From the IMG/VR virus record IMGVR_UViG_2850808358_000009: a stretch of DNA of 46,389 bases. One strand, given 5' to 3'. Of the stretch, positions 35,318 to 40,430 are shown in pieces (the stretch's first letter is position 1; every line of letters starts with the position of its first letter). Below the pieces are notes generated by a model. That model was not told where the DNA came from. It searched no databases and saw only the letters and a list, made by a program, of their open reading frames with translations. Position numbers and translations under genes: made by a program. Source of the stretch: a virus. Taxonomy: Duplodnaviria; Heunggongvirae; Uroviricota; Caudoviricetes.

Positions 35318-35392
35318 CCCTTCTTCATAGACGCCCGGTTACACGCCGGGTGTTTTTGCAAAGGGGATGACAACCTTTTGCAAAAGCATACA

Positions 35393-35501
35393 TTGACATC
35401 CGCGATAACCAATGGGTATATTCCGCTTCATGGTGCTCAAAACACCTTTTCTACTAGCGGAAACCGCGCCCGTCAGTCATGCGGATTTTTTATGTCCATG
35501 A
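35393..35501 (+). promoter_or_regulatory. Promoter (TTGACA-N18-TATATT), leaderless micro-ORF and hairpin plus T6, upstream of Bro-N paralog 1
   Basis: Near-consensus sigma-70 hexamers; ATG within a few nt of the predicted start site; 23-codon ORF (about 35430..35501); GCGG-aaa-CCGC and a second small hairpin before T6. Conserved in copy 2. Confidence 0.5.
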
Positions 35502-35643
35502 TATTGAGAATTCAATGGTCGGGCGTGCGGCTAATACAACACCCTTCCGAAGGGAAATACGCCCGCCGACTAGTAGCGGTTTTGAGCGCCCGACCACCCT
35601 CTCAAAAAGGGTAAATTCAAAATATCTACTAGGGCATAAAACC

Positions 35644-36417
35644 ATGAGTACCCAACTCGTATTCAAATCCCACATTCTCGAAACGATCGAACATAACGGC
35701 AAATCTTGGTTCACCGCTGCCACTCTGGCGACCGCGCTGGAATACTCACGAACGGACTCAGTCGCTCGTATTTATGACCGTAATCGGGATGAGTTTTCAG
35801 TTGAAATGACAACGACCGTCAAATTGACGGTCGTTAGGAAAACCGGCTCCGTCCAAATGAATAACCGCATTTTCTCTCTACGCGGTGCTCACCTGGTAGC
35901 GATGTTCGCAACAACGCCAGTAGCAAAAGAATTTCGCCGTTGGGTGCTTGATCTTATAGAGAAAGAAACCGCTATTCCGCAGTCCTCCACGGTACTGGCG
36001 CCGCACAGGGAGTGTCTGCCGAAAATGGTTTACCACCACAGTAGCAAATACAACCCGTACAGAGCCTACGCATGGAACGGAGAGAAGAACGTTTACGTCG
36101 GGTGCTATCCAACCGTGGATGAGGCTGTCGCTGCGCAGAAGGACTTTTACCGGAACGGCAGCACAAAGCGTATTCAGAAAGTGCAGACAGCAATCAATGA
36201 CGCAGAGAAGGAAATGTTCATCAACAATCTCCGCGCCATCTGTCATAACTTCCGGCGCATCAATGAAATCTGGCGCTCGCAGTTAATGCCTGCCCTCGAA
36301 AAAATGGATTCGAAACTGGTTTACCAGTTGCATGATCGTTTCAGCGACAGCATGTGTGCTCTGCCGACCATAGAAGACCGCATCGGCAGATATATTCCAC
36401 CCACTTTACCTCGTTAA
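35644..36417 (+). CDS. Bro-N domain protein (antirepressor-like), paralog 1
   Basis: 258 aa; N-terminal Bro-N-like region; C-terminal two-thirds nearly identical to 39654..40430; start moved to the internal ATG. Confidence 0.65.
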   Translation: MSTQLVFKSHILETIEHNGKSWFTAATLATALEYSRTDSVARIYDRNRDEFSVEMTTTVKLTVVRKTGSVQMNNRIFSLRGAHLVAMFATTPVAKEFRRWVLDLIEKETAIPQSSTVLAPHRECLPKMVYHHSSKYNPYRAYAWNGEKNVYVGCYPTVDEAVAAQKDFYRNGSTKRIQKVQTAINDAEKEMFINNLRAICHNFRRINEIWRSQLMPALEKMDSKLVYQLHDRFSDSMCALPTIEDRIGRYIPPTLPR

Positions 36418-36483: not shown

Positions 36484-39411
36484 TTGTCTGAAAACATTCT
36501 ATGGGGCGACCTGGAAACCTATTGCGAAATCCCTATTACGAACGGTACCCATGCGTATGCCGAAGGCGTTGAAGTGATGCTGTTCGCATGGGCTATCAAC
36601 GACGGGCCCGTAAACGTGTGGGATATCACTGCCGGTGGTGGTATTCCACACGGCTTATACGAAGCAATCGCAGCCCCTGAGACCCTGCTTTATTTTCATA
36701 ACTCTCACTTCGACCGCACCGTCCTGCGTTATGCAATGCCGCGACTGGCACCGCCAGTCGAACGTTGGCGCGACACAATGGTGCAGGCGCTGGCGCACGG
36801 CCTCCCGGGGTCTCTGGGGGAACTCTGCGAAATACTCGGCGTCCCGCAAGACAAAGCGAAGGACAAAGAAGGTAAAGCGCTGATCCAGCTGTTCTGTAAG
36901 CCACGCCCGAAAAACAGCAAACTGCGTCGGGCCACCAGTAAAACCCACCCAGAAGAATGGCGGCGCTTTGTTGCTTACGCCGGGCTGGATATCGAGGCAA
37001 TGCGCGAAGTCTATAAACGTCTGCCGAAGTGGAATTATCAGGGGACAGAACTGGCGCTCTGGCATCGTGATCAGCAGATCAACGACCGGGGCGTCTGCAT
37101 GGACATTCAACTCGCGCGCGCTGCGATCGAAGCGGTAGACCAGGAGCAAAAGCGCCTGGCAAAGCGTACACAGGAAATGACTGATGGCGAAGTGCAGGCA
37201 GCCACACAACGGGACGCGTTGATTAAGCACATCGTTGAATCCTACGGTGTGGAGCTACCAGACATGCAACGCAGTACCCTGGAACGTCGTATAGCCGACC
37301 CCGATTTACCATCTGCCGTGAAAGAACTGCTGGCTATCCGCCAGCAAGCCAGTACTACCAGCACCAGTAAATACAAGGCACTGATGAAAGGCGTAAGCCA
37401 CGACGGGCGCTTACGCGGTACGCTACAGTTCTGCGGGGCGTCACGTACCGGGCGCTGGGCCGGACGGCTATTCCAGCCCCAGAATCTTCCCCGCCCTTCA
37501 CTAAAACAGGAACAAATAGACGAAGGCATCGAAGCACTGAAAGCCGGATGTGCAGACCTGCTGTTTGACAATATCATGGAACTAACCAGTTCAGCGTTAC
37601 GTGGCTGCATTATCGCGCCAACAGGTAAAAAACTGGTGGTAAGTGACTTGTCGAACATTGAAGGCCGTATGCTGGCATGGCTGGCGGGAGAAGAATGGAA
37701 ACTGAATGCATTCAGAGAGTACGACGCCGGAACGGGTCCGGACTTATATAAACTGGCGTATGCAAAAGCTTACGGAATTGAAGTTGAGCGCGTCACCAAA
37801 GACCAGCGCCAGATAGGTAAAGTGCTGGAATTGGCTTGCATAGCTCCGGATACTTTAGTGCTCACCGATAAAGGCTATAAGCCGCTTGTTAGTATTTCGG
37901 GCGCGGATTTGTTATGGGACGGAGAAGAATGGGTAAAACACGAAGGACTGATTTACAGGGGGTACAAAGCCTTAATATCACTGGACGGAGCAAAAATGAC
38001 CCCGGATCACCAGGTGCTAACCCCTACTGGATGGAAGCTGGCAAACCTTATCGCTTTAAACAAAAATACGCTTCACCAAAGCCTGGAACTTGCTTCGGAG
38101 AACTTACCGTTATCAAAGAACTGGAAAAAGTACCCGGAAAAGACCGAAGGATACTTGTCAAATGCAAATGTGGTGCAATGCCTCACACCGCAACAATCAG
38201 CAATCTCCTTAAAGGGAAAAGTACCCGATGTAACATTTGCGCAAAGAAAAAGCATAACGAGTATCGTAAAAAATTCTTATGCTATGCGGATGCTATTGCA
38301 GATGACGAAACCCGTCGCAGGCTACTTAACCGATTGTCTGCCGCAATCAGCCGTTGCCATAAACCCACCAACAGGTTGTTTCACAACTACGGCGGTCGGG
38401 GGATCTACGTTTGTCAGCTATGGCAGGAAGATAAAAGAGCTTTTTTGCTACACGTCAGGGAAATCAAAGGGTTTAATGACCCAAAGTTGGAAATGGATCG
38501 CATCGACAATAACAAAGGCTACGAACCGGGTAATATCCAGTTCGTCTCCAAAGCAGACAATAACCGCAACAGAAGAAAAATCGCAGACCTGCAAAAGCGT
38601 ATCGACGAGCTGGAGCGATGTTTACGACATTGCACATGCGGGGCCTCGAAACAGATTCACGATTAAAACCGACTCAGGACATTTAATCGTTCACAACTGC
38701 GGGTACGGTGGTGGTGTGTCGGCCTTCATCACTTTTGCACTGGTTTACAGTCTCGATCTCGACGAGCTGGCGAACGCCGCACTGCCAAACATTCCCCGCG
38801 ATGTTATCCGCGAGGCGAAAAGCTGGTACTACGAATCGGTTAAACGTAAGTCAACCTACGGCCTTTCTGAACGGGTATTTATCGCCTGCGACTCACTTAA
38901 ACGTCTCTGGCGCAGGGCGCACCCGGCGACCTGCGATTTCTGGTACGAACTGGAGCGCACCGTCCGCACTGCAATCGCCACACCGCAAAAAACATTGTAT
39001 TGCGGTTATCTTAAAATCCGCCGCGATGGCGCGTGGCTGCGCATACAGCTACCATCCGGACGCGCGGTATGCTACCCGTCTCCGGTTATCGAAAAAGGGA
39101 ATATCACCTACATGGGTGTTAACTCTTATTCGCGTAAATGGCAACGACTCAAAACCTACGGCGGAAAGCTGGTAGAGAACGTCACCCAGGCGGCCGCCCG
39201 CGACGTTCTGGCCGGAAACATGCCGCTTATCGAAGATGCCGGTTACAGCATTGTGCTGACGGTACACGATGAAATTATAAGTGAGGCCCCTGACTCACCC
39301 GATTACTCAGCAGAACATGTCAGCCAGTTACTGGCAACCGTTCCTGACTGGGCCACGAGCATTCCACTAAACGCCGGAGGATTCGAATCTTACAGATACC
39401 GGAAAGATTGA
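36484..39411 (+). CDS. Family A DNA polymerase (3'-5' exonuclease plus polymerase domains) containing an intein
   Basis: 975 aa single ORF, TTG start after a GGAGG SD; DLET exonuclease motif near the N-terminus; after removing 37837..38697 the junction reads [21 protein letters not shown], which fits PolA motif B. Confidence 0.75.
37837..38697 (+). other. Intein within polymerase motif B (Cys-initiated, ends His-Asn, next extein residue Cys)
   Basis: Starts [17 protein letters not shown] with a TPDHQVLT block-B-like motif; ends [27 protein letters not shown] followed by C; 287 codons in the polymerase frame. Confidence 0.7.
37914..38666 (+). CDS. HNH-type homing endonuclease in the -1 frame relative to the polymerase, nested inside the intein
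   Basis: Zinc-binding FGELTVIKE...CKCG...CNICAKK region and an HNH-like motif [27 protein letters not shown]. The protein-like part spans roughly 38073..38613; true start unknown. Confidence 0.6.
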
Positions 39412-39531
39412 CATCCGCGATGACCAATAGGTATATTCCGCTTCATGGTGCTGAACACACCTATACAAGCGGAAACCGCGCCCGTCAGTCATGCGGATTT
39501 TTTATGTCCATTTTCAGATATGGTCGGGTAG
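39408..39531 (+). promoter_or_regulatory. Second copy of the promoter / leaderless micro-ORF / terminator element, upstream of Bro-N paralog 2
   Basis: Same TTGACA-N18-TATATT and hairpin plus T6. The polymerase stop codon TGA lies inside the -35 hexamer. Micro-ORF about 39445..39531 (28 codons) differs from copy 1 by a frame-preserving 3-nt indel. Confidence 0.5.
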
Positions 39532-39653
39532 CGCGTATACCGAAAAACAGCCGAAAGGCTAAGGATACGGGCCGTTCTTGTATGCGGTGTTCAAGTACCT
39601 GACCGCCCTGCTGAACACAGGGATTCTGAACAAAAATACAAGGACATAAAACT

Positions 39654-40430
39654 ATGAGTACTCAACCCGTATTCAAATCCCACGTTCTCGAAACGATCGA
39701 ACACAACGGTAAGCAGTGGTTCACCGCCGCGACTTTGGCTACTGCACTGGAATATTCGCGCGGCGATAAAATCACCCAGATATACAACCGCAACTCGGAT
39801 GAGTTTACTCCTTGCATGTCAATCAACCTCAAAATGAGGTTCAACGGGATCAACAATAGCTTACGAGAAAAAGATGTGCGTATTTTCTCCCTACGCGGTG
39901 CCCACCTGGTAGCGATGTTCGCAACAACGCCGGTAGCAAAAGAATTTCGCCGTTGGGTGCTTGATCTTATAGAGAAAGAAACCGCTATTCCGCAGTCCTC
40001 CACGGTACTGGCGCCGCACAGGGAGTGTCTGCCGAAGATGGTTTACCATCACCGGAGCAAATACAACCCGTACAGAGCCTACGCATGGAACGGAGAGAAA
40101 AGCGTTTACGTAGGGTGTTATCCATCCGTGGATGAGGCTGTCGCTGCCCAGGAACGCTTCTACCGGAATGGCAGCACGAAACGCATTCAGAAAGCACAGA
40201 CCGGAATCAGTGACGCAGAAAAGGAAATGTTCATCAACAATCTCCGCGCCGTCTGTCATAACTTCCGACGTATTAATGAAATCTGGCGAGCGCAGTTAAT
40301 GCCTGCTCTCGAAAAAATGGATTCGAAACTGGTCTACAAACTGCATGACCGCTTTAACGACAGCATGTGCATTCTGCCGACCATAGAAGACCGCATCGGC
40401 AGATATATTCCACCAGAGTTACCCCGTTAA
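39654..40430 (+). CDS. Bro-N domain protein (antirepressor-like), paralog 2
   Basis: 258 aa, highly similar to 35644..36417 outside a divergent segment after the Bro-N domain. Confidence 0.65.
   Translation: MSTQPVFKSHVLETIEHNGKQWFTAATLATALEYSRGDKITQIYNRNSDEFTPCMSINLKMRFNGINNSLREKDVRIFSLRGAHLVAMFATTPVAKEFRRWVLDLIEKETAIPQSSTVLAPHRECLPKMVYHHRSKYNPYRAYAWNGEKSVYVGCYPSVDEAVAAQERFYRNGSTKRIQKAQTGISDAEKEMFINNLRAVCHNFRRINEIWRAQLMPALEKMDSKLVYKLHDRFNDSMCILPTIEDRIGRYIPPELPR

Follow-up and report, generated by a model that had tools for sequence, protein, structure and literature searches.

The window analyzed here is the complete 46,389-nucleotide (nt) stretch of the Caudoviricetes virus record IMGVR_UViG_2850808358_000009, and it includes a prophage family A DNA polymerase gene in which the conserved motif B is interrupted by a class-1 intein. 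The intein occupies 287 codons, or 861 nt, of the polymerase frame (37837..38697, plus strand), and its interior is overlapped by a second open reading frame (ORF) on the same strand, in the −1 frame, that encodes an HNH-like putative nuclease. Conservation in divergent relatives supports the view that this endonuclease-like ORF is read separately and that both frames have been kept open by selection. The element is most probably a mobile intein with a nested, separately read homing-endonuclease gene and not one in which the endonuclease is an in-frame domain.

Boundaries of the intein and its splicing domain

The polymerase precursor ORF (36484..39411, plus strand) has 975 amino acids (aa) when read from the first TTG codon at 36484; the copies in RefSeq, named "DNA polymerase," begin at the equivalent of 36577 instead. 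Pfam DNA_pol_A matches the ORF with an E value of 5.5e-13. On the unspliced sequence the match ends at residue 449, and on the spliced sequence it reaches across the junction. The insert begins with Cys (37837..37839), contains the block B sequence MTPDHQVLT with TPDH at 37999..38010, and terminates in HLIVHN, which is followed by Cys at 38698. The 287-codon, intein-like insert that the original prediction had placed in this ORF is therefore bounded exactly by 37837 and 38697. Excision of this segment brings the motif-B half in the N-extein directly onto the sequence CGYGGG, which opens the C-extein (38698..38715) with the +1 Cys and the remaining half of motif B. The rejoined junction can be aligned residue for residue with motif B of the Klenow enzyme, RRSAKAINFGLIYG.

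Polymerases that lack the insert provide a direct comparison. Among the 5426 complete Escherichia coli genomes searched, 159 carry the polymerase; the insert is present in four of these, at 99.7% identity or more, and absent from the other 155, so that the alleles differ by the presence or absence of exactly 861 nt. In three Escherichia phages the match is to the flanks only, at ~94% identity, and is uninterrupted at the junction. The intein-less junction reads RQIGKVMELG LGYGGG, with Leu at the position of the +1 Cys in the window, and the DNA at the insertion site of one such allele (L045) is GGTAAAGTCATGGAACTCGGTCTGGGTTATGGTGGT. The contiguous motif B of these alleles and the Pfam match to the spliced sequence both bear out the proposal that removal of the insert restores the motif.

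The polymerase-frame product of the insert comprises two conserved ends separated by a central region of different character. The N-terminal splicing domain of the Hint fold consists of intein residues 1–92 (37837..38112), with block A at 37837..37866 and block B at 37999..38010; the C-terminal splicing domain, with blocks F and G, is encoded by 38599..38697. Cys is found at intein position 1 in all 27 relatives, Thr55 and His58 of block B are invariant (alignment A4), and the invariant residues of the C-terminal domain are Val262, Tyr263, Asp264, Gly269, Arg273, Phe274, His286, and Asn287. The C-terminal junction of the relatives is HN followed by Cys or Ser in every case. In an AlphaFold (AF2) model of the intein, which was built on an alignment of only nine sequences, residues 1–92 and 255–288 are confidently placed, with pLDDT scores (predicted local distance difference test) of 77–90 overall and 85–87 in the C-terminal domain. 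The center, a linker of residues 93–254 (38113..38598) that has no stop codons and is not conserved as protein, has pLDDT scores of 20–33 and cannot be modeled.

When the intein model was compared with the Protein Data Bank (PDB) by Foldseek, the 38 top matches were inteins without exception, among them the Ssp DnaB mini-intein, gp41-1, NpuDnaE, and RecA, with a best E value of 8e-4 and probabilities of up to 1.0. The identification of a Hint domain is thus upheld by the fold and not by sequence profiles, which are weak: the NCBIfam intein_Nterm profile gave an E value of 0.021, below the cut-off, Pfam had no match to the insert in either frame, and NCBIfam gave nothing usable in either frame. 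A protein search with the polymerase-frame intein returned only eight matches because the word index cannot follow the non-conserved center. A search of the insert for a group I intron or another RNA family found none. Because the catalytic residues are conserved, and phage replication presumably depends on these polymerases, we infer that the insert is removed by protein splicing.

The nested reading frame and its predicted protein

From its first ATG, the nested ORF has 250 aa (37914..38666, plus strand) and is one base out of register with the polymerase frame (36484 mod 3 = 1, 37914 mod 3 = 0). The more likely start is the second ATG, at 37929, which gives a putative homing endonuclease of 245 aa followed by TAA (37929..38666); the residues of the protein are numbered from this start. 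There are 1001 database homologues with E values of 1e-5 or less. The best 120 protein homologues are all 334 aa or shorter and thus include no visible in-frame fusion to a polymerase. The AF2 model of the −1-frame protein has a mean pLDDT of 85.7, with values above 90 over most of residues 50–230, whereas the first ~40 residues, which are overprinted on the Hint N-terminal domain, are disordered. In 91 sequences, four cysteines (Cys79, Cys81, Cys101, and Cys104) that form a zinc-ribbon-like CxC...CxxC arrangement (38163..38240), as well as Asp190, Arg191, Tyr198, and Asn202, are invariant, and His128, Asn211, and Asn214 are nearly so. The stretch from Asp190-Arg191 through Tyr198 and Asn202 to Asn211/Asn214 (38496..38570) is a putative β-β-α nuclease motif.

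The original prediction described this product as a clear HNH endonuclease; the intact ORF stands, but "clear" is too strong a word. The families of the PHROG database named "HNH endonuclease" match it, phrog_374 with an E value of 4.7e-37 and also phrog_2081 and phrog_3377, as does a restriction endonuclease family, and phrog_1035 ("endonuclease VII") matches weakly (E value 3.1e-7). In contrast, Pfam, NCBIfam, and PDB sequence searches gave no HNH match for this protein or for its free-standing relatives. A PDB search with the 91-sequence profile showed a resemblance to zinc ribbons only, and the Foldseek comparison of the model with the PDB gave weak fold matches, none of them significant. 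The predicted β-β-α layout with conserved Asp, Asn, and Tyr resembles PacI, an HNH enzyme that uses Tyr in catalysis, and the protein could be a PacI-like variant. A defensible label, given these matches, is "HNH-like putative nuclease." A mini-intein that served as a control shows that polymerase-frame block F gives rise to the C-terminal RLRHCxCGA of the HNH-like protein as a by-product.

Selection on the two frames was examined in a codon alignment of 20 representatives with a median pairwise nucleotide identity of 54%. Variability is highest at position 3 of the polymerase frame in two segments, one from 37837 to about 38007 and one from about 38613 to 38697. Between 38022 and 38610, it is highest at position 3 of the HNH frame, which is position 2 of the polymerase frame. 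This switch reflects which protein is under constraint, namely the Hint domain toward either end of the insert and, in the center, the product of the −1 frame; in the aligned relatives, the codon-position pattern shows purifying selection on each of them in its own region. Together with the low pLDDT of the linker, it agrees with the earlier statement that the center of the insert is meaningless in the polymerase frame.

The polymerase frame is nevertheless free of stop codons across the ~197 off-frame codons in all 20 representatives. Over the 197 codons of the window, it has no stops as compared with 14 in the third frame and 5–13 in the antisense frames; in the 20 representatives, the center has 3–24 stops in the third frame and 1–19 in the antisense frames. 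Synonymous shuffling of the −1-frame ORF of the window leaves the polymerase frame open with a probability of 0.0004, and for the HNH codons of the 20 representatives, the corresponding probability ranges from 0 to 0.23 per sequence. No stop-free recoding was obtained in 3000 trials when the window was recoded with the codon usage of the polymerase itself. Recoding with the extein codon usage of each locus predicts 1.2–6.7 stops (mean, 4.6), and the probability of none is at most ~0.02 in 19 of the 20 representatives. Free-standing homologues have 3–17 stops in the corresponding frame. The absence of stops that had been reported for the window alone thus extends to all 20 representatives, and the codon-position switch and the avoidance of stops, over ~20 divergent lineages, are as expected from the proposed selection for dual coding. 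In these comparisons, the sole detectable constraint on the polymerase-frame linker is that it has no stop codon. Selection for a hydrophilic linker was considered and is unsupported, the hydrophobic fraction being equal to or above expectation in 18 of the 20 representatives.

The position of the start codon is indicated by the distribution of stops in the HNH frame: over the 30 codons that precede the ATG at 37929, there are 38 per 600 codons, and from this ATG to the conserved core, there are 0 per 679 codons. The codon at 37929 is ATG in all 27 loci of the first set, and in a wider set it is ATG in 50, GTG in 16, and CTG in 1. A Shine-Dalgarno (SD)-like sequence, GGGACGGAG (37916..37924), lies 4 nt upstream; the sequence at this place, GGGAYGGNG, has a mean anti-SD pairing energy of −8.05 kcal/mol in the 20 representatives as compared with a background of −2.9. 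The ATG at 37914, which had been proposed as the start, is ruled out because stops follow it, before the second ATG, in L006 and the L010 group of relatives. The Met40 column (38031) was also rejected, being CTG in three lineages and AAA in one. No promoter-like site was found within the polymerase gene, so that translation of the nested ORF would presumably use the polymerase mRNA.

Distribution, mobility, and alternative explanations

A scan of viral contigs with the polymerase-frame intein gave 433 loci, of which the best 80 were read, in a similarity ranking that includes the central region. The polymerase frame is open in all 80 of these best loci, as part of a single uninterrupted host ORF, and a −1-frame ORF of at least 200 aa is present in 65 of the 67 distinct sequences scored, the third frame having 8–46 stops. 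A scan with the −1-frame protein gave 36 loci, 27 of them with the intein and an identical frame relation. The frame relation is also the same in three further E. coli genomes. In a low-stringency DNA search, Vibrio phage 97.13 proved to carry the insert at 68% identity, and Pseudomonas phage MR14 matched the 3′ end of the insert; the polymerase ORFs of the two phages are open through a non-conserved center, and each phage has an ORF of ~250 aa in the other frame. By tblastn, the nested protein lies under the polymerase coding sequence (CDS), named there as an intein-containing precursor or plainly as DNA polymerase, in most of the Jersey-type Salmonella phage records listed, and Salmonella phages account for 149 of the 323 matching phage records. 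Two short ORFs, P0127 and P0128, that were considered as split-intein halves are contig-edge or gene-calling artifacts.

The intein is found at two positions in motif B. At one, GKVxELA before the intein and C-GYGG after it, it is present in the window, L001, and L006–L008; at the other, four codons away, the corresponding sequences are GK(x) and C-ELxLGY, and this site is used in MR14 and the Jersey-type phages and in L002, L009–L022, L018, and L030. The +1 residue is Cys or Ser at both, and the spacing suggests that the site shifts within one motif. At least one extein that hosts the family is not a polymerase and has a helicase-like LTGTP motif (L028/L029). In L033, the host ORF (2399–4720) is by its motif an SNF2-like helicase, and an intein of the same Hint family encloses an HNH-like ORF (3474–4169) that is in the +1 frame, is 29% identical to that of the window, and begins right at its own conserved N terminus. 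Across this ORF, the remaining frame has 13 stops and the host frame none. The same Hint family also includes a mini-intein of 139 aa (L126, 2501–2917), in a polymerase of a Burkholderiaceae metagenome-assembled genome at the site GKT|CILGLGYG, that lacks a nested gene; its −1 frame is closed by many stops, and at the start position, it has Asp-Trp (CTG) and no ATG. Free-standing relatives of the nested gene are common, examples being L032 and gp146 of mycobacteriophage Sebata, and are typical phage "HNH endonuclease" genes.

In two viral contigs, L063 (2501–3376) and L114, the polymerase frame is open and the nested ORF has a premature stop (AKK*SGYW in L063), possibly as a result of endonuclease decay. 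The assembly of E. coli VL40 (L004) has one extra A in an A-run at the equivalent of 38155, which breaks both frames, and its polymerase is annotated in RefSeq as two pseudogene fragments; the extra base may be an assembly error or a real inactivation.

The flanks of the insert carry a putative trace of its transfer. When 90 nt on each side were compared, the extein of the window was nearly identical to that of the intein-less E. coli 97-3250 apart from the junction, where mismatches cluster from ~65 nt upstream to ~10 nt downstream and the +1 residue is Cys as compared with Leu. The ~65 nt at the end of the N-extein (37772..37836), which encode the first half of motif B, are strongly diverged from the intein-less E. 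coli alleles and are a putative co-conversion tract, the trace expected from homing from a diverged donor. Co-conversion that included the Leu-to-Cys change would explain how a site without a +1 nucleophile was colonized. The distribution of the insert (4 of 159) and the co-conversion-like flank support a mobile element, with site-specific cleavage as the presumed initiating event.

These features can be combined in the following mechanism. Ribosomes from the polymerase start codon would read straight through the insert, and intein residues 1–92 and 255–287 would fold as a Hint domain, with the 162 residues between them as an arbitrary, unstructured linker. Protein splicing through Cys1, TPDH, His-Asn, and the +1 Cys would then restore motif B. 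Other ribosomes would start inside the intein at the ATG at 37929, behind the SD-like sequence and one base out of register, to produce a 245-aa protein with a disordered head, a zinc ribbon, a helical domain, and a β-β-α HNH-like motif. This protein presumably cuts intein-less polymerase alleles, and repair would copy the intein together with a short flanking segment of extein, including the Leu-to-Cys change needed at +1.

Four other explanations were weighed. The frame relation could be a sequencing or assembly artifact in which an endonuclease that is truly in frame has been displaced by two compensating indel errors. The A-run difference in VL40 does indicate that homopolymer errors occur at this locus, but the identical relation is seen in the three other E. 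coli genomes, the Vibrio and Pseudomonas phages, the Jersey-type Salmonella records, and ~80 viral contigs, with only 54% median identity among the representatives, and these comparisons refute an artifact. The −1 frame could instead be a decaying relic, the remains of an ancestral in-frame HNH domain that was frameshifted and is non-functional, with selection acting on the polymerase frame only. Homing endonucleases decay after fixation, only four E. coli genomes carry the element, and the nonsense codon in L063 and the early stop in L114 leave the polymerase frame intact. However, codon-position variability in the center tracks the HNH frame, the −1-frame ORF is intact in 65 of 67 distinct sequences and in all 20 divergent representatives, its product is modeled with confidence, and the best 120 protein matches include no in-frame relative; a relic is therefore highly unlikely.

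Programmed −1 ribosomal frameshifting, which would yield a fusion of N-extein, Hint-N, and HNH protein rather than an independently initiated product, would account for the frame of the nested ORF, and at 38055..38061, inside the overlap, the polymerase frame contains a canonical slippery heptamer, T_TTA_AAC, at which a slip would join Hint-N to the HNH-frame protein. This heptamer arises from HNH-frame Phe-Lys codons, and an X_XXY_YYZ heptamer of any kind is found in the region in 3 of the 20 representatives and is absent from the other 17, which makes frameshifting improbable as a general route. The heptamer is also downstream of the onset of HNH-frame conservation, the HNH frame is stop-free from the ATG at 37929 onward and not before it, and the L033 relative uses the +1 frame; we regard this route as very unlikely. 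It is also unlikely, though less so, that the −1-frame protein is real and selected but serves as a DNA-binding or regulatory protein or as a nuclease for the phage and not as a homing endonuclease. The PHROG nuclease families that match it (HNH, restriction endonuclease, and endonuclease VII), its predicted PacI-like β-β-α motif, its typical "HNH endonuclease" relatives, and its association with a sporadic intein that has a co-conversion-like flank all favor homing.

Several points count against a nested homing-endonuclease gene, the explanation that we prefer. The bases of the SD-like sequence and the ATG double as codons for a conserved Hint-domain motif, W-D-G-x-[E/K]-W, in which the Glu or Lys codons force A or G before TGG, so that their conservation is only partly independent evidence for a start site. 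At the end of the first strand, where the catalytic His of HNH_3-type proteins is located, the nested protein has the invariant Asp190-Arg191 instead. In-frame or other variants that rank below the best 80 of the 433 viral loci would be missed. Finally, we infer splicing, internal initiation, and DNA cleavage, all three, from sequence comparisons and models.

The nested arrangement had been suggested to be an intermediate between an intein-endonuclease fusion and a split gene. The conservation described above indicates that it is ancient and stable and not transitional, and the best 120 protein matches include no in-frame relative. The free-standing relatives, the mini-intein in L126, and the +1-frame ORF in L033 are better explained by the capture of an endonuclease gene by a mini-intein than by the frameshifting of an in-frame domain. 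Most probably, a free-standing HNH-like gene settled in a mini-intein, was stably inherited from then on, and spread among many phage polymerases and into at least one helicase. It is also possible, although doubtful, that the out-of-frame layout is adaptive and marks out mobile inteins of a class of their own, in which a mini-intein would be tied in obligate partnership to a nuclease translated separately. If so, overprinting would uncouple the dosage and timing of the nuclease from polymerase expression, the excised intein would stay small and fast-splicing, and one Hint scaffold could take different nucleases in either frame (−1 here and +1 in L033). This would account for the spread over two motif-B sites, into two or more host genes, and through numerous phages of Gram-negative bacteria.

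Related systems and annotation

In canonical bifunctional inteins, of the LAGLIDADG type or, in the case of some phage inteins, of the HNH type, the endonuclease is a domain of the same polypeptide. The element described here shares with them the splicing residues, insertion in a conserved motif, a sporadic distribution, and a presumed homing cycle, but its in-frame center is a filler without conservation, and it is the −1 frame that encodes the nuclease-like protein. Out-of-frame intein endonucleases have already been reported in preprints of 2025–26. The present case has another host gene and host group and apparently another nuclease family, and both its spread and the depth of its conservation are unusual. 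In a preprint on actinobacteriophage inteins (Gosselin et al. 2025), an endonuclease VII-like ORF is located "in frame 3," in what is called the first report, and endonuclease genes are also found on the antisense strand of inteins; a free-standing endonuclease gene that invaded an intein is proposed as the origin. The two systems have in common a Hint domain in the extein frame, a same-strand endonuclease ORF in the −1 frame ("frame 3") between the splicing blocks, and an in-frame center without recognizable structure. The endonuclease VII region there spans residues 1–67, whereas the motif here is C-terminal (residues 188–214) and matches phrog_374, a contrast drawn without direct sequence comparison. 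The hosts here are phages and prophages of Gram-negative bacteria rather than actinophages, and the extein, unlike theirs, is motif B of a family A polymerase. Codon-position analysis, stop-avoidance statistics, and start-site mapping, all given here, do not appear in the accessible part of the preprint.

Other arrangements resemble parts of this one. Among cyanobacterial dnaX inteins, that of Synechocystis is reported to have a LAGLIDADG endonuclease gene on the opposite strand (Gorbalenya 1998), and a 2026 preprint reports an out-of-frame endonuclease (bioRxiv 10.64898/2026.09.14.751524). These inteins likewise have a nested endonuclease gene outside the intein polypeptide and differ in nuclease family and host gene. 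In the fractured genes of Dassa et al. (2009, PMC2677866), a free-standing endonuclease gene lies between split intein halves, and the capture of such genes by a mini-intein is the model of those authors. There too the nuclease is a separate gene product tied to splicing halves, whereas the host gene here is one continuous ORF in the window and in 80 of the 80 related loci. The ShiLan insertion in methylases of mycobacteriophages (Arsenault et al. 2025, PMC11855218) likewise has an HNH ORF out of frame with an open host-gene frame, but no splicing domain is detectable in it, whereas the nested gene here is flanked by a complete Hint domain. A literature search for a nested gene in this polymerase intein, in an incomplete library, found no description, which is absence of evidence only.

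The intein of the Jersey-type Salmonella phages has been recorded without its nested gene. Phage vB_SenS-Ent1 (HE775250.1) has the same intein family and a nested ORF that is 52% identical (tblastn) to the −1-frame protein of the window, with the intein four codons upstream of the site in the window (GK|CELxLGY). The product is annotated as "intein-containing DNA polymerase precursor," and the intein is noted as "encoding splicing domains," with no endonuclease. The splicing-only polymerase intein of these widely used phages and of E. coli prophages therefore appears to hold an unannotated gene, one that gene callers and annotators miss, list as a hypothetical protein, or turn into an "endonuclease" label for the polymerase. 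In Salmonella phage Ijeoma (L043, 969–4067), the entire intein-containing polymerase CDS is labeled "endonuclease," and in other phage records, the match to the nested protein is a "hypothetical protein" or "ssDNA-binding protein." For the evolution of overlapping genes, the family is a deep and well-sampled case in which one frame is only kept open and the other bears the protein constraint, and for the origin of inteins, it supports the invasion of splicing elements by free-standing endonuclease genes. The Jersey-type phages and the E. coli prophages are easy to handle, and mutations that are silent in one frame can address nested translation and homing.

Two further observations concern the surroundings of the polymerase gene. 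In vB_SenS-Ent1 (L042), the helicase gene ~600 nt downstream of the polymerase gene (4661 onward) has a second intein with an in-frame LAGLIDADG endonuclease, so that canonical and nested-gene inteins coexist in one replication module. In the window, the polymerase gene is bracketed by two direct repeats of ~1 kb (35392–36417 and 39407–40430) that are 4.0 kb apart and contain segments of 74–98% identity. Each has a σ70-like sequence, TTGACA-18 nt-TATATT, a match to the Rfam family sRNA-Xcc1 (35517–35603, 70.3 bits, and 39522–39612, 65.6 bits), and a gene with a BRO-N domain (35479–36417 and 39654–40430). The intein-less prophage of E. coli 97-3250 has neither repeat cassette.

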